In this document: piece after piece, positions 6,198 through 48,880 of the stretch
Layout of the letters: each line of letters opens with the position of its first letter
Numbering within the stretch: the stretch's first letter is position 1
Assembly (NCBI GenBank): GCA_036677555.1
Contig: JAVBWG010000011.1
Span: 14,177-78,176, forward strand
Direction: 5' to 3'
Length of the DNA stretch: 64,000 nucleotides
Source of the DNA: Methanomassiliicoccales archaeon
GTDB taxonomy: Archaea > Thermoplasmatota > Thermoplasmata > Methanomassiliicoccales > UBA472
Notes under the pieces: generated by a model
The model's input: the letters and a program-made list of their open reading frames with translations, nothing else
Database searches by the model: none
Told to the model about the DNA's origin: nothing
Translations under genes and position numbers: made by a program

Positions 6198-9092
6198 CTA
6201 CTTCTTCTTGGCCGGCGGGGAGGGACCCTTCTTGCCGGACATCATGGGCAGCTTCTTCCTGAACAGGAAGAGAACGATGACCACGATGATAACGGCGAAG
6301 ATACCGCCGTAGAGCAGCCAGGACTTCCAGGCAGCCTCCTCCACGGTCAGGGACTTGGTGGCGGAGTTGTCGGTCATCTTGGAGCTGACCTCCTCGTTGG
6401 CGCTGACGTTCACCTGCAGGGTGTAGTCGCCCTTGGAGTCGAAGGCGTACTTGAACCTCAGCTGGCCGGTCTCTCCGACCTGAAGCTCGTCGTCCTCGGT
6501 TCCGTTGACCAGCAGGACGCTCACATCGGTGAGCAGCTTCCTGGTCCCGTCCAAGTTGACCTTGTACAGCTGGCCGTATATACCCTTGGCCTCGGCGGTG
6601 CCCACGTTGGTCACGTTGACGTAGATGTAGCCATCCTCGCCCTCGGTGAACTTGGTGGGATCGAAGCTAACGACGCCGACACGGAGGTCCGGACGGGCCG
6701 AGGACTCGACCTTGAGGCTCATAGTGGTGTTGGCCTTGTTCCCGGCGTTGTCGGTCAGGGTCAGCTTCACGGTGAAGGTCTTTATCGCCGAGTAGTTGTG
6801 GGTCGGGGAGGCCAGGGTGCTGTTGGTCCCGTCGCCGAACTCCCAGAAGTAACTTGCGATCCCGCTGGCATCGCTGGATGCCGAGGCATCGAAGGTCAGG
6901 GTCTGGTTCTCCTTGGCGCTGGTGACCACGGTGCCGTTCAGCTTGACGGAGAACTTCACGGTGGGCTTCACAGTGTCATTCACGGTAACGGTGACCGTCT
7001 TGCTGGAGGTGTGGTTCGCGACATCGGTCACGTTCAGGTACATGGTGAATATACCAGCCTTGGTCCAGGTCTTGGTCACGGTCTGGTTCTCACCCATGAG
7101 CACGGTGGTGGTGTTACCGTCGCCCCATACCCACTTGTAGCTGGCGATGAGACCGGCCTCGGTCGTGGCGTTCAGCCTGTCGTAGGAATCAGCGCTGTTG
7201 AAGGTGTATGCCTTGTTCTGGTCGACGGTGAGGGTCGTTCCCAGCACGGTCACGTTCTCCTTGGCGGCCACCTCGGGGTTGACGCCGTCCACCTTCACGT
7301 CGAAGGACTTGTAGGCGACGAGTCCGGCCTGGTCGGTGACGGTCAGGTTGACGGTGTACTGCTCAGCGTTGGCGTATGCATACACGTAGGTCAGGTTGGA
7401 CACCGGTCCGCTGCCGTTTCCGTCGCCGAAGTCCCAGGTGTATTCCAGCGGGTTCTGGTTCGGATCGCTGGACCCGGAGGCGGTGAAGGTCACGTTCTGT
7501 CCCTTGGCGACAATGTAGTGCAGGAAGGTGGAACCGTTCATCACCTTGTAGGCGTCGACGCCGGTGACTATGGCGGCGGCGGCCGTGGGGGCCACGGACT
7601 TCTGTACGGTCAGGGTCACATCGGCCTTGGCGGTAGCGCCGGAACTGACGGTCACATCGGTGTATCCAGTGACGGTCGCCCCGGAGTTGGACGGAGTGAT
7701 CGTGGCGCTTCCGACCTTCTCATAGAGGTTCGGGAAGGATACGGTATAGTTGTACCTCATGTCCGACAGGGTCTTCGGTATGGAGACCTTGACGGAGTAG
7801 GACGCCAGGTCGTTGGTCACGGTGCTGAGGGTGGTGTAGCCGGCGACCATCTCGATGTGTATGTCGGCGGAGGCGTTGACCGCGCCGACCAATCCAGTTA
7901 TGTCGTACTCAGGATCGGCCAGGTCGGACACCAGGATCTGGTTTCCGACAGTCAGCATGCCCTGGGTGGTGACTTCGATGGGGCCGAAGGCCACCATCTC
8001 GTCGACGAAGGCTGCGGCCTCGGTGGCGTTCACGTTGCCGTCGCCGTTTCCGAACACCAGGTCGATCTGCATCCTGGCGCTTGGGATCTCAGCATAGTCC
8101 AGCCCGGGAACGGTGTTGTCGTGGTCCACGGCCAGTTTCTTGGTCAGGGTGGCCACGTTCCAGTCGTTCGCATCGAACTCGAAGTTGTTCTCGGTGATCT
8201 GGACGTTCTGCGCGGCGAGATCAATGGTCTTCACCGGGTTCGTCGCTCCGATGGTGACCGTCTCGATGGTGGAGAGGGCTCCGTCGGCATCGACCACCAG
8301 GGTGAAGGTGCCCACGTAGGCGTCGAAGGTGAAGTACGGGGAGGTTCCAGCGGCCTTGATTATCTTCCTATCTGTCTCAACCAGAGGGTTGGAACCCACC
8401 AGATACGCAACGACCCCGGTCGCCGGGGCGTCGTTCACGGTCACGAATCCAGCGTAGACCACGGCTGCGGACAGGGTGATGTTGACGGTCTTGTTGGATC
8501 CGCCGATCACCACTCCGGCCTCCACATCGGTGGAGTATCCGGACTTGGAGCAGACCACGGAGTAGGTTCCGTTGGGCAGGCTCAAGGTGGCCACGCCGTT
8601 GTCGGCGACGGTGGATATGGAGGTGACAGCGTCATCATGGACGGTCTTGACGACAACAATGGCATCGTCAAGGGCCCCGGCGGTCCCGTTGACGTTTACC
8701 GTCATGGTGTAGGTGTCAGCGCTCATCTGGGCCAGAGGAGCGAACACGGTCTTCGCAGAAAGATCGTCGAAGCGGAAAACATCGCTCTGGTACGTGTAGT
8801 ATCCGGACCTGGACACCACGACCTTGTAGTATCCGTCCAAGGGAGTGAATTTGACCACGCCGCCCGTCCCGGTCGTCTGGGCAGGGATGGCGCTCTGCTG
8901 GTGTACGCCTATCAGGGCGACCGAGGCTCCGACCACAGGGGCAGCGTTGTTCTCATTATACACGATGATCGACAGTTCATTCCCGGAGGTCGCGGCGCTG
9001 ACGTTCCCAGGCACGACCGCCAAGAGCGGCATGGCCAAGAGCATCAGGACCATCAATCCGGTCGCTAGCTTCCAGGTTTTGTTCAATTGCAT
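6198..9092 (-). CDS. Large surface (S-layer-like) protein with PKD repeats and C-terminal TM anchor
   Basis: Signal peptide MQLNKTWKLATGLMVLMLLAMPLLA. Three PKD cores (YTWDFGDGNGS, YKWVWGDGNTT, YFWEFGDGTNS). CARDB-like NVTNVGTAEAKG. C-terminal helix plus a basic tail. 29 N-x-S/T sequons counted by eye. Confidence 0.85.
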   Translation of the reverse strand: MQLNKTWKLATGLMVLMLLAMPLLAVVPGNVSAATSGNELSIIVYNENNAAPVVGASVALIGVHQQSAIPAQTTGTGGVVKFTPLDGYYKVVVSRSGYYTYQSDVFRFDDLSAKTVFAPLAQMSADTYTMTVNVNGTAGALDDAIVVVKTVHDDAVTSISTVADNGVATLSLPNGTYSVVCSKSGYSTDVEAGVVIGGSNKTVNITLSAAVVYAGFVTVNDAPATGVVAYLVGSNPLVETDRKIIKAAGTSPYFTFDAYVGTFTLVVDADGALSTIETVTIGATNPVKTIDLAAQNVQITENNFEFDANDWNVATLTKKLAVDHDNTVPGLDYAEIPSARMQIDLVFGNGDGNVNATEAAAFVDEMVAFGPIEVTTQGMLTVGNQILVSDLADPEYDITGLVGAVNASADIHIEMVAGYTTLSTVTNDLASYSVKVSIPKTLSDMRYNYTVSFPNLYEKVGSATITPSNSGATVTGYTDVTVSSGATAKADVTLTVQKSVAPTAAAAIVTGVDAYKVMNGSTFLHYIVAKGQNVTFTASGSSDPNQNPLEYTWDFGDGNGSGPVSNLTYVYAYANAEQYTVNLTVTDQAGLVAYKSFDVKVDGVNPEVAAKENVTVLGTTLTVDQNKAYTFNSADSYDRLNATTEAGLIASYKWVWGDGNTTTVLMGENQTVTKTWTKAGIFTMYLNVTDVANHTSSKTVTVTVNDTVKPTVKFSVKLNGTVVTSAKENQTLTFDASASSDASGIASYFWEFGDGTNSTLASPTHNYSAIKTFTVKLTLTDNAGNKANTTMSLKVESSARPDLRVGVVSFDPTKFTEGEDGYIYVNVTNVGTAEAKGIYGQLYKVNLDGTRKLLTDVSVLLVNGTEDDELQVGETGQLRFKYAFDSKGDYTLQVNVSANEEVSSKMTDNSATKSLTVEEAAWKSWLLYGGIFAVIIVVIVLFLFRKKLPMMSGKKGPSPPAKKK

Positions 9093-9245
9093 TATTTCCC
9101 TCCCTCACGATAGGCGCACCTATAGTGCTGACTGAGTCTCGGGTTATCTCGGAATAGTGTTGCTCTTAATAAAGGTTATCCAAACGAAAAAACCATGCTG
9201 GCCATCGCCAATAAGAGGATGGAAAAGAGGTTTGCGAAGTATCGC

Positions 9246-10403
9246 TCAGGTGACGATCTCCGCCACGCGGTCCTGTTCGATGGCCCGCCTGACCTCCATC
9301 GCCAGCCGCCGGCCGGTGCTGACGCTCCGGCGCCAGAGCGAGTTGGCGTACGGGTGGCCGACGGACATGTGGACGTTCGTACCGCCGCCTATGCGCGGAG
9401 CCACGTCATAAATGAAGAACTTGAGGTCCTTGTCCACGCAGGTCTGCAAACAGAAAGGACCGATCATGCCGGGAGCGAAGTGCTTTTCCGCGGCCTTCAC
9501 GAACTTTTCGGCAAGCTCGAACGCTCCGTCCAGAAGAGATTCGCGCATGGTCGAGGAGTTGTGGCCGCAGACCGTCATTTCAGGGATGCGCTGCTTGTCG
9601 TTCAGCGCAAGCTGCTGCTCTGCCGGGAGCCTTACGAAACCGTCCAGGGAGGACTCGAAGCGCCAGTCGATGCCCAGCAGTTCTATCTTTGAACCTTTCT
9701 CCTCCAGAGGGGAATAGAAAAAGTCCAGATTGAAGACCGGGCCGATTATGTATTCCTCCATTCGCGCGTCGGCCAGGGAATCCTCCTCGATCACGCCGTC
9801 GCGGATCAGCTTCTTGGCCTTCTCCGAATATTCTTCCGGAGTGGAAGCGGTGAAGAACCCGCGCTCCAGCTTCTTCTGCTTGTGATGCAGCTTTACTATG
9901 GTAAGAGCGCTGATGTCCTCGGGTTTTTTCACTTTTCGCGGGGACGGCATTCCGGCCTTCTCAAGCACCCAGTAATAGTCTTTCTCGCCGCCGCGGTCCT
10001 CGCAGCGTAGCATGTTACGGGAGCCGACTAGGGGAACCGGGAAATCGTTCTCCACCGAGTCGATGCTGCAGTAGGAGGTGAACGAGCGGTTGGGCACGAA
10101 AAGCACGTTCTCCTTCAGCAGACGGTCGACCACCTGCTTGCTGGTCGCGTCCTTGAACTTCTTGAGCATGAGCGCTTCGTCGACAATGCCCCTCCTCAGC
10201 TGTCCGTTCTTCTCGCGGTAGGCCTTGAAGTATTTGGTGTAGGCGGAATCGCGCCCTTCCTGGCACACGGCCAGGGTGCGGAAGCCCTCCTCCACCGCGC
10301 CATCGCAGACGTCCAGCGCGGAGTGCGAGGCGAGCACCCCGATCTTGATCTTCTCCGGATTGTAAGCTTCCAGTTTGCCCAGGATGGTGTCCCTGTCGAT
10401 CAT
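9246..10403 (-). CDS. purP: FAICAR synthetase (5-formaminoimidazole-4-carboxamide ribonucleotide synthetase), archaeal PurP
   Basis: IKIGVLASHSALDVCDGAVEEGFRTLAVCQEGR N-terminus typical of PurP; ATP-grasp length of 385 aa. Confidence 0.85.
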   Translation of the reverse strand: MIDRDTILGKLEAYNPEKIKIGVLASHSALDVCDGAVEEGFRTLAVCQEGRDSAYTKYFKAYREKNGQLRRGIVDEALMLKKFKDATSKQVVDRLLKENVLFVPNRSFTSYCSIDSVENDFPVPLVGSRNMLRCEDRGGEKDYYWVLEKAGMPSPRKVKKPEDISALTIVKLHHKQKKLERGFFTASTPEEYSEKAKKLIRDGVIEEDSLADARMEEYIIGPVFNLDFFYSPLEEKGSKIELLGIDWRFESSLDGFVRLPAEQQLALNDKQRIPEMTVCGHNSSTMRESLLDGAFELAEKFVKAAEKHFAPGMIGPFCLQTCVDKDLKFFIYDVAPRIGGGTNVHMSVGHPYANSLWRRSVSTGRRLAMEVRRAIEQDRVAEIVT

Positions 10404-15161: not shown

Positions 15162-15245
15162 GCAGGGGTAGCCAAGCCTGGCCAACGGCGCTAGATTCAG
15201 GGTCTAGTCCTTAGTGGTCCGAGGGTTCAAATCCCTTCCCCTGCA
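15162..15245 (+). tRNA. tRNA-Leu (anticodon CAG), long variable arm
   Basis: GCAGGGG acceptor, CTAGA-TTCAGGG-TCTAG anticodon arm, variable arm TCCTTAGTGGTCCGA, GAGGG-TTCAAAT-CCCTT T arm, CCCCTGC-A end. Confidence 0.85.
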
Positions 15246-15246
15246 C

Positions 15247-24627: not shown

Positions 24628-25275
24628 CTACTTTATCTGCCTGTCATGGGCCTTGACGGACGGGCGCGCCTTCTCCGCACCCTTGCCCTTCCAGTGCAGA
24701 CCGCGACCCTTGCGTCCGGCGGAGGTCTTGCCGCGGAACACCCTGTTCTTGTTGGCGTTGTCGCACAGCCAGTTCAGGTTCTTGTCCGCCTTGATCGAGG
24801 GGTGGTGCTTGTCCACCAGGATGATCTCGTACCAGACATTCTTGCCGTCCTCGCCGACCCAGTAGGAGTTGAGCACCTCGAGGTTGGGGTAGCGCTTGGC
24901 GGCCCTCTCCTCGGCGATCCGCTTCAGGCTCTTTCCCATGGTGATCTTCTTCATACCCTCGCGCTTGGCGCGGCGTCCCTTGTATCCCATGCGCTTCTGC
25001 AGGCCGCCCTTGCGGACGTGACCGCGGACCACGATGATCCCCTGCTTGGCCTTGTAACCCAGAGCGCGGGCGCGGTCCAGGCGGGTGGGCCGTTCCAGGC
25101 GGCAGAAGTTGGGCTCCCGCCTCCAGAGAATGAGCCTCTCCCACATCAGTCCCTTCACGTAAGAAGCATCGGGCCGGTCCCAGGCGTCGGAGATGTAGGA
25201 GTACATGCTCTTTCCGTTCACTGGCCTGGGCCCTTCCTCGTTATCGTCGACCTTGTTGTCTACCATTTGTATCAC
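24628..25275 (-). CDS. rpl15e: 50S ribosomal protein L15e
   Basis: [12 protein letters not shown]...[30 protein letters not shown]. The true start may be the MYSYIS ATG at 25206. Confidence 0.9.
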
Positions 25276-25402
25276 CAGTGCCGCCGTTGGCGGCGCTTCG
25301 GGATTCGCCCCTTGCGGGGTACATATCCGGCGAGACTTATCTCGCTACAATGCCCACACAATATGTGGGGTTATTTAAACGATTTGTTCAGAGCAATTAT
25401 CC

Positions 25403-26026
25403 TCAGATATGCCCCAGTGATCGCGACTGATGATTGCGTTGTACCAATCCATCGATCTCTGAAAGGGCGATATGCATGGTGGTGCCGGGATTCGGCGGTA
25501 TCGATTCCTCGGTGCCTTCGCTCCATGTCCTCAGCGCCCTGTCCATCGCACCCTGTCTCAAAGGACCCAGCAGGTCGTGGTAGTCCTCGGTCTTGTGATA
25601 GCCTTTTATATGGTCCTTCAAGGACCGATGAGCCTCTTGGCAAGAGATTGCCACTCCCACATCCTGGAAATGCATCAGGAACCAGAGCTCGAAACATGGA
25701 TTGGTCATTGCTAGCATAATCCCTGATCCATGGGCGAGCTTTAACGCCTGCGAAAGGTTCCCTGCGTCGTTCCCCTCGATGTCGAAAACGCATACCGCCA
25801 TATCCCCCTGATCGATATCGATCCCTTTCATATCCATATTCTCAACGCAGAGCTTGACCAATCCCAGTGCATCGGTGGGATGCGATTTGGGCACCACGAT
25901 CTTTACGGCGCTTTTCCGGCTCCTAAGGCCAGTGAAGTAGATGCGCTCGGTCCATCCTTCAGCCACCACCAAGACGGTGCTTGATGGATTTCTGTTGGCC
26001 ATCCGCCTTTTGGATGGATATCCCAC
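25403..26026 (-). CDS. RloB-like (TOPRIM-like) protein, AbiLii-like
   Basis: VLVVAEGWTERIYF and TNPCFELWFLMHF signatures. GTG 26026 overlaps the ATPase stop; alternative ATG at 26002. Confidence 0.75.
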   Translation of the reverse strand: MGYPSKRRMANRNPSSTVLVVAEGWTERIYFTGLRSRKSAVKIVVPKSHPTDALGLVKLCVENMDMKGIDIDQGDMAVCVFDIEGNDAGNLSQALKLAHGSGIMLAMTNPCFELWFLMHFQDVGVAISCQEAHRSLKDHIKGYHKTEDYHDLLGPLRQGAMDRALRTWSEGTEESIPPNPGTTMHIALSEIDGLVQRNHQSRSLGHI

Positions 26027-27291
26027 TAAACCACCTTGGCGGGGGTGATGGCAGGTATCGCCCCGTATCTACCGGCCTGATATGCCTTCAGTACATCACG
26101 GTCCTTCCTTTCTTTGAACTCCACGAGGGAGACCAGTTCCGAAACGCCCCTGTCTGGGGACCGTTCAACGAACCAGATCTGGTCCCGTCGTAGGTTGGCA
26201 AGGTCCAGGAATAGCTGGTCATGTGTATTGAATATCAGCTGCGCTCCCCTCTTGTTCTGCGATGGGTCGTGGAACAGGGAGATCAACCATTCGCTTATGT
26301 CATGGTGAAGCTTGGTGTCGAGTTCGTCCACGACCAACGTTCCTCCCCTTTGCAGTACGTCGATCATCGGTCCAAGGATATTGAACAGCTTCCTGGTGCC
26401 CTCAGACTCGAATATGTAAGGAAGCTGTTTTTCGATCTCCGCGCCGTCAGCCCCCTTCACCCGGTGAGTGAACCGAAGGTCCGTTTGCTTGGCCTCGTTT
26501 CCAAGGACTGTCATTACGCCCAGTACCTGTGGTGGGATGGTATCATAGAGACTTGCGATGGGAACCTTGCGGACCCTTCCATCGACCCCCGTGATACCCA
26601 GGTCCGCGATCTGCAATGCTTTGACCATCAGCGATTTGGCCTTCTTGTTGTGATTCATGAACTCGATCGCGCCTTCGGTCAATTGGGGAGAGTCCGTATT
26701 GTCAATAGCGACGAGGCGATCCTGAAACCATTCGAAAGCCGGAGTGGTAGCGGCGTAGTTGAACTGTACCGATGTTGAAAGATATAGCTGATTTTCCAAG
26801 GTTCGACGGGATATGACCTCCTGCTCGGTCCGATCACGGTTGAACTTGAATTCGCTCCCACGGCGGGAGAATATCATAGCCAGCTTTCCGTTTGGATAAT
26901 GGCTGAGCTTCTCCTCCACGATCTTGGCGTGATCGTAGCTCATTGAATATTCATACATGACCTGTTTGTGCAGGAATGATATGGTAAACCTGGTAGGCTT
27001 CTGGACACATGATTCGTCGAAGGCGAACGGTTGGTGGTTGAGACCGGTACCCTTTTGATGATTGTGCGATCGGACCACGAAGTTCCGGAGGATCGCCATT
27101 GCCAGGACCAGGTTGGTCTTCCCGGAAGCGTTGGCCCCGAAGATGACCGCGCTGTTAAGGACCTTGTCACCCTTCAGCATTGGATCTCGGGACAGATTGT
27201 CAGGGAGGCTCCTATCAGAAGAAGCCATCATGCTGAAGGTGGTTGGGTCGCGGAACGACCGGAAGTTCTCCACCGTGAACTCAAGGAGCAT
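26026..27291 (-). CDS. AAA_21-type ABC-like ATPase, AbiLi/RloA-like
   Basis: FTVENFRSFRD, Walker A GANASGKTNL, Walker B LVVDELDTKLHH, FNTHD. Confidence 0.8.
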   Translation of the reverse strand: MLLEFTVENFRSFRDPTTFSMMASSDRSLPDNLSRDPMLKGDKVLNSAVIFGANASGKTNLVLAMAILRNFVVRSHNHQKGTGLNHQPFAFDESCVQKPTRFTISFLHKQVMYEYSMSYDHAKIVEEKLSHYPNGKLAMIFSRRGSEFKFNRDRTEQEVISRRTLENQLYLSTSVQFNYAATTPAFEWFQDRLVAIDNTDSPQLTEGAIEFMNHNKKAKSLMVKALQIADLGITGVDGRVRKVPIASLYDTIPPQVLGVMTVLGNEAKQTDLRFTHRVKGADGAEIEKQLPYIFESEGTRKLFNILGPMIDVLQRGGTLVVDELDTKLHHDISEWLISLFHDPSQNKRGAQLIFNTHDQLFLDLANLRRDQIWFVERSPDRGVSELVSLVEFKERKDRDVLKAYQAGRYGAIPAITPAKVV

Positions 27292-27315
27292 GAATGATGA
27301 TTACGAGATTGTTAG

Positions 27316-27341
27316 ATATATAAATTTGTGATATTATCACA
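27316..27341 (-). promoter_or_regulatory. TATA box plus adjacent perfect palindrome upstream of the ATPase/RloB pair
   Basis: On the minus strand, TTTATATAT (27324..27316) ends 24 nt before ATG 27291, which fits a leaderless-type layout. The palindrome TGTGATA-N-TATCACA (27327-27341) abuts it at the BRE position. Confidence 0.5.
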
Positions 27342-27372
27342 TTATTTGATTATTAATTTTATATTATATAAT

Positions 27373-29808
27373 TTACATGAAGTCATCCAGCGACAACTTC
27401 TTGTCGGTCTTCTTGACCTGTTCCAACTTGATCTTCGGCCTATCCTGCTCGGGCGCATAGTCGAACAGGCTCGCCTGCTGGTTACCGTTCAGGAGGTCCT
27501 TCTCCCCCCAGCCGAACACTTCTGTGGCTCGGGACAGCGTCTGCGCCAGTCGTTCCGCGTAGTATCGGTAGTCGGGGGTGTAGGTGAACTCCTGGCCGGA
27601 GATGTACGGTTGTACTTCCTGCGGCTTCCTGCGGAAGTTGGTGACGATCCAAGAGACCTTCATCCCTGGCACGAACTCGTATCCCATCTCCATGAGCTTC
27701 TTCGCCGTCTGCACCGTGGCCTGGGCGTCCGGGTTGGCGTATTCGCTGAACTTGCGGCAGCCCTTGGAGATGACCAGCTTTTCCAGCGGCACCTTGCCGG
27801 CCAGGGTGTCCTGCACGTAGCCTCGGGCGGCCTTCACCGCCTCATCGGTCTTCCCGTCCATGATGAACTCGAAAACGGTCATCAGCGACTCGGACTGCAG
27901 GTCGAAGGAGTCGGTGCGGCGCACCTCGTAGCCGCGGATGACCAGCTCCTCCTTGGGCCAGACCATCCGGCCCACGTAACGCTTCTTCTTGCCGTGCGAG
28001 AACAGCGGCTCCATGATCTTCTCGAACTCCAGCGAGCCGCCCTCCTTGGAGAAACGGGCCGCCAGCTCCTTGCCGAAGTTCAGGGATCCCTCCAGATCCT
28101 CGTGCGGGGATTGGACGAACACCGAGTCTGTGTCCGAATATATCACGTTCACCCCCTCGTCCGTAAGTGATCTGATGATGCCCTTGGTGGTCTCCCGGGC
28201 GAAGGCGGTTATGCTTCCCCCGATGGAACGGTCGGTGAAGCGGTAGAAGGAGGAGGCGAAAACGCCATAGAAGGAGTTCATGAGGATCTTTATCGCCCCC
28301 TGCAATCCGTCGTAGTAGTGAGCCTCTTCAGGGTCCTTGGCCTTCTTCGCCAACGACTTCGTCTCATCCCTGCGGCGCATGAGGTCCGCCAGTATGGACG
28401 GCAGGATCCCCGGTTGCTGCTCCTTGCTCAGGAAGTGCACGCCCAGAGGTGAGACTATCGTCCCCCGGTCGTCGCGGGTGGTGAAGCAGATGTTCCTTGA
28501 TATGATGAGGCTGGGGTACATGGACTTGAAGTCCAGGACGCACACCCAATGGTAGACGCCTGGCGATATCTCGTGCACATAGCCGCCCTCGATGGCGTTC
28601 TCCTCATCGTCGTCGTAATTTCCGGTCAACGGCACGGCCACCTGCGGCGCGTGGCGGTCGGCGGCCCGGATCATTATGGCATCGATGAGCTGCGAGGAAC
28701 CGGAATTGAGCACATCATCCACCGGCATCCGGGACACCGCCGCAAGGTCCATCCCCTTCCGGATACGGCCGACCTTGCCCAGGATCTTAAGCGCCAGCTC
28801 AGCGTCGCGGGTGCAGTACGCAAGGACCTTGTCCCGGTTGTTCATCCATTCCTTGTCTATGGCCCGGGGATCGTAGTCCTCCCCGACCTTCATCTTCATG
28901 TCCACGTCCAGCTTCTCTTCGCCCAGCAGCGATTTGGAGACCGCGTTCAACGTTTCCTGCTTGGGCTTGATCTCGATCTTGACCGCCCACCAGGCGTCCG
29001 CTATCAGCCGACCGGTGCAGCGCCAGAACTTGTTCATGACCCGGCGGGGGTTGGAGCGGTCGCGGCCCCATTTCAGCTCATCCATGCCATACTTCTTTGC
29101 CCGCTCCATGATGAACGGGATGTCGTAGCCGTCGATGTTGTAGCCGGTTATGACATCCGGGTCCTCCATCTGGATGACCTCGGTGAACCTCTCGATCATC
29201 TCCTTCTCCGTTCCGACCACTGGTTCGCCGGACCTGATCCCGCCCTCGTCCTTTATGACGTAGCAGATGGTGTAGATCGTCTCGTCGGTGATGGAGTTCT
29301 CGATGTCGAAGCTGAGGATCTTGAGCTTCGGCGTGAAAGGTGGTATCTCAGTGAAGCCGCGCAGGTTGACCACCAGGTCGGTGGTGTAATCTCCCTTGAT
29401 CTCCTCCCCGCGGGCCGTGAAGCAGGCCGGGAGATCGTTATCGTAAATGAAGCGATGATGGAACGGTATGTCGGCCGCGAAGACCTCCATCCCCTGGCGC
29501 TTCAGCTCGCTGCGGTACTGCGGCACCGCCCAGGGGAACTTGATGATGACCTTGGAGCACTTCTGCACCCGGCCTTTGCTGATGAGGAAGAGGTCCAATC
29601 CCTCGATCCCCAGGAAGTCGTCCTTGCCCTGTACGTACGGGAGGACATCCTCCGGCGGCGCCGCGACATGGAAGTAGGGACGGAAGCCGGTCTTGCGCAT
29701 GGTTATCGAGCGGCCGTCGCGGGTCTTGCCGAACAGTTCGACCACTATGCTGTCGTTGTCCCCCTTAGAATATGAGGCGGTCAGGAGCCGGACGTCCCAT
29801 TCGCCCAT
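27373..29808 (-). CDS. polB: Family B DNA polymerase
   Basis: Exo motif LSFDIEN, KILMNSFYGV, YSDTDSVFV; 811 aa; no intein. Confidence 0.95.
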   Translation of the reverse strand: MGEWDVRLLTASYSKGDNDSIVVELFGKTRDGRSITMRKTGFRPYFHVAAPPEDVLPYVQGKDDFLGIEGLDLFLISKGRVQKCSKVIIKFPWAVPQYRSELKRQGMEVFAADIPFHHRFIYDNDLPACFTARGEEIKGDYTTDLVVNLRGFTEIPPFTPKLKILSFDIENSITDETIYTICYVIKDEGGIRSGEPVVGTEKEMIERFTEVIQMEDPDVITGYNIDGYDIPFIMERAKKYGMDELKWGRDRSNPRRVMNKFWRCTGRLIADAWWAVKIEIKPKQETLNAVSKSLLGEEKLDVDMKMKVGEDYDPRAIDKEWMNNRDKVLAYCTRDAELALKILGKVGRIRKGMDLAAVSRMPVDDVLNSGSSQLIDAIMIRAADRHAPQVAVPLTGNYDDDEENAIEGGYVHEISPGVYHWVCVLDFKSMYPSLIISRNICFTTRDDRGTIVSPLGVHFLSKEQQPGILPSILADLMRRRDETKSLAKKAKDPEEAHYYDGLQGAIKILMNSFYGVFASSFYRFTDRSIGGSITAFARETTKGIIRSLTDEGVNVIYSDTDSVFVQSPHEDLEGSLNFGKELAARFSKEGGSLEFEKIMEPLFSHGKKKRYVGRMVWPKEELVIRGYEVRRTDSFDLQSESLMTVFEFIMDGKTDEAVKAARGYVQDTLAGKVPLEKLVISKGCRKFSEYANPDAQATVQTAKKLMEMGYEFVPGMKVSWIVTNFRRKPQEVQPYISGQEFTYTPDYRYYAERLAQTLSRATEVFGWGEKDLLNGNQQASLFDYAPEQDRPKIKLEQVKKTDKKLSLDDFM

Positions 29809-48780: not shown

Positions 48781-48880
48781 GCTCCCGTAGTGTAGTCCGG
48801 CCAATCATTCCGCCCTTTCGACATCGCTGAAAGGCGGTGGAAGGTAGGCGAAGACCCGGGTTCGAATCCCGGCGGGAGCA
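48781..48880 (+). tRNA. tRNA-Glu (anticodon UUC) with 25-nt intron at the canonical 37/38 position (about 48821..48845)
   Basis: GCTCCCG acceptor pairs with CGGGAGC-A. T arm is CCGGG-TTCGAAT-CCCGG. Anticodon arm is CCGCC-CTTTCG[intron]A-GGCGA. The intron folds as ATCGCT-GAAA-GGCGGT, and TTTC:GGAA forms a central helix flanked by 3-nt bulges. Confidence 0.8.

Follow-up and report, generated by a model that had tools for sequence, protein, structure and literature searches.

A probable AbiL-type antiviral module with a putative operator, exchanged horizontally between polB and rpl15e in Methanomassiliicoccales

Introduction

AbiL, known since 1999, is an abortive-infection operon of the Lactococcus lactis plasmid pND861 in which an ATP-binding cassette (ABC) ATPase of the AAA_21/AAA_15 type is followed by a RloB-family protein. 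Here we describe a similar pair from an archaeon. On the minus strand of a 64-kb stretch of Methanomassiliicoccales DNA (the window, meaning the whole stretch analysed), an abiLi-like and an rloB-like gene stand between the genes for the family-B DNA polymerase (polB) and ribosomal protein L15e (rpl15e). To our knowledge, no archaeal member of AbiL has been studied and the AbiL mechanism is unsolved. The only split ABC ATPase and TOPRIM system that we know to have been solved mechanistically is PARIS (AriA/AriB), a class 4 OLD-like system of P4-like satellites of Escherichia coli, whose ATPase scaffold is hexameric.

Lactococcal AbiL confers phage resistance (Deng 1999, cited in PMC13064643) and acts after phage transcription (PMC13064643). 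It has been grouped with PARIS (PMC13064643, PMC11464382), in which a sensor ATPase sequesters a TOPRIM nuclease until a viral cue releases it and tRNA is cut (PMC11464382). A 2026 review leaves it undecided whether AbiL works in a PARIS-like way, and AbiLii superposes poorly on AriB in the published comparison (PMC13064643). RloA and RloB were named from type I restriction-modification (R-M) loci (PMC13064643). AbiL appears in prokaryote-wide defence surveys and is reported to be frequently linked to R-M systems (PMC3632139).

Our comparison favours, as the probable reading, a stand-alone, horizontally exchanged antiviral module of AbiL type in the Methanomassiliicoccales chromosome, which would work by a PARIS-like mechanism and carries a putative operator. 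What is new is the exact boundaries of the cassette, the series of empty sites, alleles and scar placed along the host phylogeny, decay biased towards the effector, and an operator-like dyad that recurs across the family.

Results

The pair matches AbiLi and AbiLii

The sequence-only reading of this stretch had proposed an AAA_21 ATPase with a RloB partner, corresponding to AbiLi and AbiLii, and profile searches bear this out for both proteins. The 421-aa ATPase matches Pfam AAA_21 (1.3e-24; 88 bits, cut-off 27) and AAA_15 (33.7 bits, cut-off 32.1); its best PADLOC model is AbiLi (PDLC02335, 9.7e-92), and the AriA model matches as well (4.1e-27). The 207-aa protein covers positions 1–194 of the 195 in Pfam RloB (PF13707; 1.6e-29, 104 bits, cut-off 31.5), with AbiLii as its best PADLOC model (PDLC02337, 3.7e-21). 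NCBIfam held no model matching either protein. The likeness to AbiL, a system modelled in PADLOC/DefenseFinder, comes from the PADLOC models, in which AbiLi and AbiLii are the best matches for both proteins, and from the layout of the genes, which are adjacent, co-oriented and in ATPase-first order. The lactococcal prototype, compared here through the models alone, lies on a bacterial plasmid, whereas the present pair occupies an archaeal chromosome between core genes, and its promoter is of the archaeal TATA type and bears a TGTGA-N5-TCACA dyad.

Every motif singled out beforehand was found, namely FTVENFRSFRD, GANASGKTNL, LVVDELDTKLHH and FNTHD in the ATPase and VLVVAEGWTERIYF and NPCFELWFLMHF in its partner. 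The nucleotide-hydrolysis motifs of the ATPase are all intact: Walker A (G52ANASGKT), a signature-like motif (E295SEGT), Walker B (L319VVDELD) and the H-loop (FNTH357D). The columns G52–K58, E295–T299, D322–E323 and H357 are invariant in an alignment of 55 sequences, and all are kept in the window. The AlphaFold2 (AF2) model of the ATPase (predicted local distance difference test, pLDDT, 89.8) resembles Rad50 best in Foldseek (1.8e-11), together with SMC heads, Septu PtuA (8eea, 9e-10) and a retron type I-A ATPase (9n69, 1.5e-8); PARIS AriA is not among the top 50 structural matches. At least 10 contigs, for which nine samples are listed, encode an identical ATPase, GCA_964393355.1 among them.

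The RloB protein is modelled as a four-strand alpha/beta core (pLDDT 92.6) with an invariant E23-G-x-T26-E27 after strand 1 and an invariant D82 (x E/D84) ending strand 3; further invariants are E113, within NPCFELW, and N179-P180. The arrangement of these acidic residues suggests a possible TOPRIM centre, and the statistical similarity to the OLD TOPRIM is weak. Among 62 relatives scanned at relaxed thresholds, three gave a weak Pfam OLD-like_TOPRIM match and a few gave weak PADLOC matches to GajA, RT-Toprim and mad4. Alignment by hhalign with P2 Old has an E-value of 0.26, and when a deeper RloB profile is set against an alignment of three OLD sequences P is 0.006, with EGxTE paired with VEGKTE and FDxD with DCD of Old. 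Searched against the PDB, the RloB model returned generic folds only (Foldseek) and the RloB profile no relevant sequence match. Its sole significant match in BFVD is a phage RloB-like protein (template modelling score 0.71). Divergence is greatest in the C-terminal helical domain, where pairwise identity is 0.32–0.45, compared with 0.53–0.68 in the core. The family is very large: grouping at 50% identity gives 14,669 clusters, of which the best 150 are stand-alone proteins without exception.

These properties place the pair beside several known systems. As in PARIS, a split ABC ATPase (AAA_15/21) that matches AriA accompanies a small effector with an acidic centre; the effector here is RloB, however, whereas that of PARIS is DUF4435 (AriB). 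The window RloB has no DUF4435 or AriB match at E<=0.01, nor is either among the families listed for the 62 relatives. The pair is therefore not a member of PARIS, although it may work like one. The OLD nucleases (class 1 P2 Old; class 2 Gabija GajA) likewise combine an ABC ATPase with an E / DxD acidic centre, and in hhalign VAEGWTE of RloB matches LLVEGKTE of Old while FDIEGN aligns with ADCDF. In contrast to OLD, ATPase and effector are two polypeptides here, and RloB is set apart by its NPCFELW motif and by a C-terminal helical domain that evolves fast. The ATPase head resembles in structure those of Septu PtuA and the retron type I-A ATPase, but their partner effectors are HNH nucleases and a reverse transcriptase. 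RloA/RloB of Campylobacter jejuni type I R-M loci has a partner of the same Pfam family, and one relative of the present pair (L082, below) lies beside hsd genes; no R-M system is near the pair in the window genome.

The cassette is a patchy insertion between polB and rpl15e

The two genes overlap at base 26026, which is common to the TAG stop of the ATPase gene (26028-26026) and the GTG start of rloB (26026-24), as had been noted from the letters (TAGTG). The identification of the flanks as rpl15e and polB also holds (Table 1). The lower GC content previously judged by eye is borne out by measurement: GC is 0.49–0.55 over 25250-27750 and 0.58–0.64 (about 0.61) on either side, and GC at third codon positions is 0.68 in the ATPase gene and 0.64 in rloB, compared with 0.83–0.88 in five neighbouring genes (polB 0.86, rpl15e 0.88, a GTPase gene 0.88). 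The composition of the pair is thus foreign-looking relative to host genes.

The insertion is delimited by comparing the polB loci of 63 species, each represented once, from Methanomassiliicoccales and other Thermoplasmata (compared loci bear L numbers). The adjacency of polB and rpl15e is ancestral, with a gap of 100–300 nt in many lineages, and the close homologues of the ATPase bear Methanomassiliicoccales names. The left edge of the cassette is the base after the polB stop (27373-27375). On the right, homology with the empty loci L019, L030 and L022 resumes at AAATCGTTTAAATAA (25385-25371), and the rpl15e TATA box TTTAAATA (25379-25372) marks the downstream boundary. The span first proposed, 25276-27372, is correct at 27372 and slightly generous at 25276, the cassette ending at about 25386.

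Within the clade whose PolB is at least 85% identical to that of the window, the site is occupied by AbiL in the window, L010, L012, L015, L017, L018, L023 and L029, and empty in L019, L020, L022, L030 and L034. L021 has a deletion scar in which the spacer and the first ~39 abiLi codons remain. L016 (metagenome-assembled genome AnMBR.bin245; PolB 97% identical) carries at the same site a 398-aa ORFan (8477-9673, +) with its own promoter and a GC of 0.47 vs 0.60. Pfam, PADLOC and PHROGs contain no match to the ORFan, which may represent a defence or accessory gene not yet recognised. The site states are interleaved on the PolB tree: the window is sister to L015, which has another allele class, and to L016 with its different cargo, and L017 (class A, see below) pairs with the empty L019, L012 (class B) with the empty L034, and the L021 scar with the empty L022. 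The pair is patchy among relatives and unlike the host in composition, which agrees with the earlier view of a small defence islet between core informational genes.

No direct or inverted repeats flank the cassette and no duplication is seen at its junctions; the gene list for 10 kb on either side contains no recombinase domain, and no tRNA lies within 10 kb. An origin as a mobile element or genomic island was rejected on these grounds, there being neither flanking repeats, tRNA target, recombinase nor target-site duplication. Known RNA families were found neither in the cassette nor in the rpl15e leader. Elsewhere in the comparison the polB–rpl15e gap is 1.2–3.1 kb (L025, L027, L035, L039, L047, L051, L053, L055, L057, L059, L065, L066, L069, L070, L075) or 0.7–0.9 kb (L036, L037, L042), and the cargo in distant Thermoplasmata, with translations judged by eye, includes a 317-aa hydrophobic open reading frame (ORF), Cys-rich zinc-ribbon-like ORFs and others. 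Since this cargo is unrelated, the site appears to tolerate insertions generally rather than defence genes specifically. The idea of a dedicated defence hotspot was dropped as unsupported, the cargo looking miscellaneous by ORF inspection alone.

Two deep allele classes and selective decay of RloB

The occupied sites hold two allele classes, A (window, L010, L017, L023 and L029) and B (L012, L015 and L018). Between species with PolB 85–97% identical, the alleles are 66–86% identical in the ATPase and 34–71% in RloB; between classes the values are 66–70% for AbiLi and 34–45% for AbiLii, and the PolB of the hosts window, L015, L017, L018 and L029 is 95–98% identical. The proportion of synonymous differences (pS) between classes is 0.79 for AbiL, indicating saturation, vs 0.41 for polB. 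Within classes, the nonsynonymous rate (dN) of AbiLi is close to that of PolB (0.023 vs 0.027; 0.026 vs 0.024), and between classes it is 12-fold higher. A uniformly fast clock was therefore rejected, and the divergence points to allele replacement or a long-maintained polymorphism. Between species the cassette shows presence and absence, allele replacement and decay. Both genes are under purifying selection, with dN over the synonymous rate (dN/dS) at 0.05–0.10 for AbiLi and 0.21–0.31 for AbiLii.

Decay is one-sided. The ATPase is 421 aa long and intact in 8/8 lineages, while RloB is disrupted in three of the eight: by a frameshift inside EGxTE (L029:9783-9960), by loss of the start codon and a stop in CVFD (L012/L013:9311-9912, the same lesions in both assemblies), and by replacement of its C-terminal third (L018:6323-6838). 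Were lesions distributed simply according to gene length, all three would strike RloB with a probability of ~0.036. Their restriction to RloB fits a toxin-like protein that would be the dangerous partner of the pair.

A conserved promoter dyad accompanies the cassette

The very AT-rich region of about 80 bp noticed upstream of the ATPase gene is confirmed by measurement (Table 1), and this spacer is 80–81 nt long in all eight alleles. With its 3′ end 25 nt ahead of the ATG, the abiLi TATA box predicts, through an inferred start site, an mRNA without a leader or with a very short one. Directly upstream of the A/T box, the half-sites GTGA-N5-TCACAAA are invariant in 9/9 alleles, the scar counted; in the window they form a TGTGA-N5-TCACA palindrome, present in a single copy in 64 kb where 0.04 are expected. 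No description of a TGTGA-N5-TCACA control site was found in the literature searched. At the junction of the two genes, the Shine-Dalgarno-like AAGGTGGT is kept in 8/8 alleles together with an overlap that is TAGTG in group A or ATGA in group B, a layout by which abiLi and rloB would be translationally coupled.

The dyad is not limited to this site. TTGTGA-N5-TCACAA stands ~50 nt upstream of the AbiLi ATG in L079–L081, where the cassette has another setting (below), and in L082. The exact archaeal palindrome is confined to this close subfamily (6 of 154 distant AbiLi loci), and since it is missing from distant relatives a generalised dyad was examined. Of 130 non-redundant loci, 23 have the perfect dyad TTGNN-N7-NNCAA upstream of AbiLi, vs 3 of 124 controls taken from A/T-rich regions that precede other genes of these loci (p=3e-5); shuffles predict 0.29 for the 23 observed. 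With one mismatch allowed, the counts are 45/130 and 11/124. A spacing of 7 prevails (23 of 28 cases), and symmetry is retained across eight arm types. At bacterial-type promoters the generalised dyad overlaps the -35 box and spacer. The position of the element, ahead of the TATA box or across the -35 box, indicates a DNA site and not an mRNA hairpin. As the dyad travels with a cassette that encodes two proteins only, autoregulation is the most economical reading: the operon is probably controlled by AbiLi, AbiLii or their complex, with a host factor as the alternative. The dyad would thereby provide at the promoter the palindromic operator characteristic of an autoregulated toxin-antitoxin-like operon.

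Relatives at other sites

L079–L081, from a second Methanomassiliicoccales clade, encode AbiLi proteins 55–58% identical to that of the window. Their fixed place in the chromosome is a different one, flanked on one side by a divergent PadR-ABC transporter operon and on the other by an ACT-domain gene and the carbon monoxide dehydrogenase/acetyl-CoA synthase (CODH-ACS; cdhC, cdhD) operon. Here, too, the cassette has a GC content ~9–11 points under that of the host. On L082, a Woesearchaeota contig of 32% GC, the AbiL pair adjoins a cluster of type I R-M and Shedu-domain genes. That cluster (L082:1-5807) reads hsdM - SduA_C - hsdS - ORF - hsdR, a Shedu-type nuclease-domain gene embedded in a type I R-M operon, which adjoins both the AbiL pair and a ribosomal-protein operon.

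A further 160 AbiLi loci were drawn from metagenomes and IMG/VR, and RloB lies directly downstream of AbiLi in 144 of the 154 that could be assessed. Plasmids and viral contigs commonly carry AbiLi-like ATPases, PHROGs includes relatives as well, and the plasmid homologue H23 is annotated RloA. The lactococcal prototype is not among the organisms listed in the output of the plasmid search. Given the large RloB family, the commonness of AbiLi-like ATPases and the presence of AbiL in defence surveys, the pair is best regarded as an archaeal, chromosomal addition to the known AbiL type.

Small ColE1-type enterobacterial plasmids (4.6–5.1 kb; many records) also carry an AbiLi-like ATPase. On one that was inspected, E. 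coli plasmid pLR-33_3 (L243; NZ_AP027526.1, 265-2004), an ATPase 30% identical to AbiLi precedes a 122-aa protein that is not RloB. It was therefore rejected as an AbiL pair, and the combination appears to be different from AbiL and unnamed.

Discussion

Proposed mechanism and alternatives

The module is most likely a PARIS-like, possibly autoregulated, abortive-infection system. An oligomer of the ATPase, acting as sensor and scaffold, would hold the nuclease-like RloB effector inactive until a viral trigger released or activated it. The acidic E...DxD/E centre of RloB could then cut an essential nucleic acid, tRNA or other RNA or DNA, and this cleavage would abort the infection. The dyad beside the TATA box, at the position of the B recognition element (BRE), would serve as the operator for autoregulation of the kind seen in toxin-antitoxin modules.

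An alternative is that the pair is a selfish, toxin-antitoxin-like addiction module in which RloB is the toxin and the ATPase the antidote, so that cells losing the ATPase would die and the antiviral benefit would be slight or absent. The operator-like dyad recalls autoregulated toxin-antitoxin operons, lesions affect the gene of the putative toxin only (3/8 lineages vs 0/8), no other defence genes are linked to the pair at the window locus, and PARIS itself behaves as a type II toxin-antitoxin pair (PMC13064643). Toxin-antitoxin behaviour and defence are not exclusive, however, as both PARIS and AbiE combine them, and the lactococcal prototype confers phage resistance. Deep allelic diversity at one locus together with replacement is expected of virus-driven selection and is not predicted by addiction alone, and the clean empty sites and the scar show that the cassette is readily lost; we consider pure addiction rather unlikely. 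A dependence on R-M systems, with the pair as a RloA/RloB-type accessory that works only beside one, for instance by sensing anti-restriction as PARIS senses Ocr, would suit the origin of the names RloA and RloB, the reported association of AbiL with R-M and the hsdR/S/M neighbours of the Woesearchaeota relative. Yet the pair stands alone in the window and in all Methanomassiliicoccales relatives examined, whether at polB/rpl15e or at PadR-ABC/ACT-cdh, and no R-M genes occur within flanks of 6–10 kb (L001/L002, L010–L013, L079–L080; shorter upstream in L081 and on the short contig L014), which makes this reading improbable.

Two further readings concern whether the pair defends at all. Scars and RloB pseudogenes among relatives could mean that the window copy is a decaying, non-functional relic. 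Against this, neither of its ORFs is truncated or lacks any invariant residue or motif, and its promoter, dyad and coupling signals are undamaged; in addition, dN/dS lies far below 1 and the identical ATPase recurs on 10 contigs in the nine samples listed, so that a relic is very improbable. A housekeeping role in DNA repair or replication, with a Rad50-like ATPase and a nuclease placed beside polB for functional reasons, would account for the Rad50 and SMC heads among the best structural matches and for the adjacency to the replicative polymerase. It is hard to credit, because the pair is absent from sister species with PolB 93–96% identical, its composition is foreign, other clades carry the same cassette at unrelated sites, several lineages have RloB only as a pseudogene, and the best profile matches are defence models rather than Rad50 or Mre11. 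Patchy distribution, foreign composition, purifying selection and intact motifs together argue against both the housekeeping and the relic readings.

The antiviral module favoured here may also be extended, tentatively and with somewhat less than even expectation, to a broader scheme: archaeal, bacterial and viral AbiL would share a co-evolving 17-bp operator through which the ATPase–RloB complex represses itself, and in this Methanomassiliicoccales genus the two ancient allele classes and the nulls would be kept at a single chromosomal site by virus-driven balancing selection and by recombination through the conserved polB/rpl15e flanks. If the complex does repress its own promoter, AbiL would be a bona fide autoregulated immune module of toxin-antitoxin type. 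The locus is a compact archaeal representative of AbiL in which both genes, the promoter and the coupling signals are intact. The same-site series in sister species, with its two deep allele classes, empty sites, scar and RloB pseudogenes, shows which parts are dispensable or dangerous. The conserved promoter dyad, recurring across domains, is a testable regulatory element; binding by a cassette protein would give a first regulatory handle on AbiL and a mechanistic link to toxin-antitoxin-type immunity. These results should be of use to specialists in prokaryotic immunity and leave the known classes of defence systems unchanged.

Other features of the region

Table 1. Features of the polB–rpl15e interval in the window (positions count from the first base of the window).
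Feature	Positions	Strand	Basis and remarks
Whole inserted cassette: own promoter, abiLi-like and abiLii/rloB-like genes	25386..27372	-	1,987 bp; boundaries and GC
A+T-rich promoter spacer	27292..27372	-	81 nt, 84% A+T
Operator-like palindrome TGTGATAaTATCACA	27327..27341	.	Perfect dyad directly upstream of TATA box
TATA box TTTATATA of abiLi	27317..27324	-	Sequence reading; A/T box kept in all alleles
AbiLi-type ABC ATPase gene	26026..27291	-	421 aa, ATG start; Pfam, PADLOC, AF2 model, Foldseek
Shine-Dalgarno-like AAGGTGGT within abiLi 3′ end	26030..26037	-	Kept in all 8 alleles
AbiLii / RloB-family gene	25403..26026	-	207 aa, GTG start; Pfam, PADLOC, AF2 model, BFVD
rpl15e promoter and structured leader, outside cassette	25276..25385	-	Kept in empty-site genomes
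Family-B DNA polymerase gene (polB)	27373-29808		Flank; PF00136 5.8e-51
Ribosomal protein L15e gene (rpl15e)	24628-25275		Flank; PF00827 5.2e-79

The rpl15e leader (25276-25371, -) is highly conserved in sequence and has three conserved stem-loops, with compensatory changes in 3 of 31 predicted pairs among 14 species; it belongs to no Rfam family and may be a ribosomal-protein regulatory leader. L15e itself has a conserved N-terminal extension of ~20 aa, in which substitutions fall chiefly on third codon positions. Farther off in the window, ARAGORN predicts a tRNA-Leu(CAG) at 15162-15246 (+) that Rfam does not report at its gathering threshold, and Rfam gives a 100-nt tRNA match at 48781-48880 (+) that ARAGORN missed, possibly an intron-containing archaeal tRNA.

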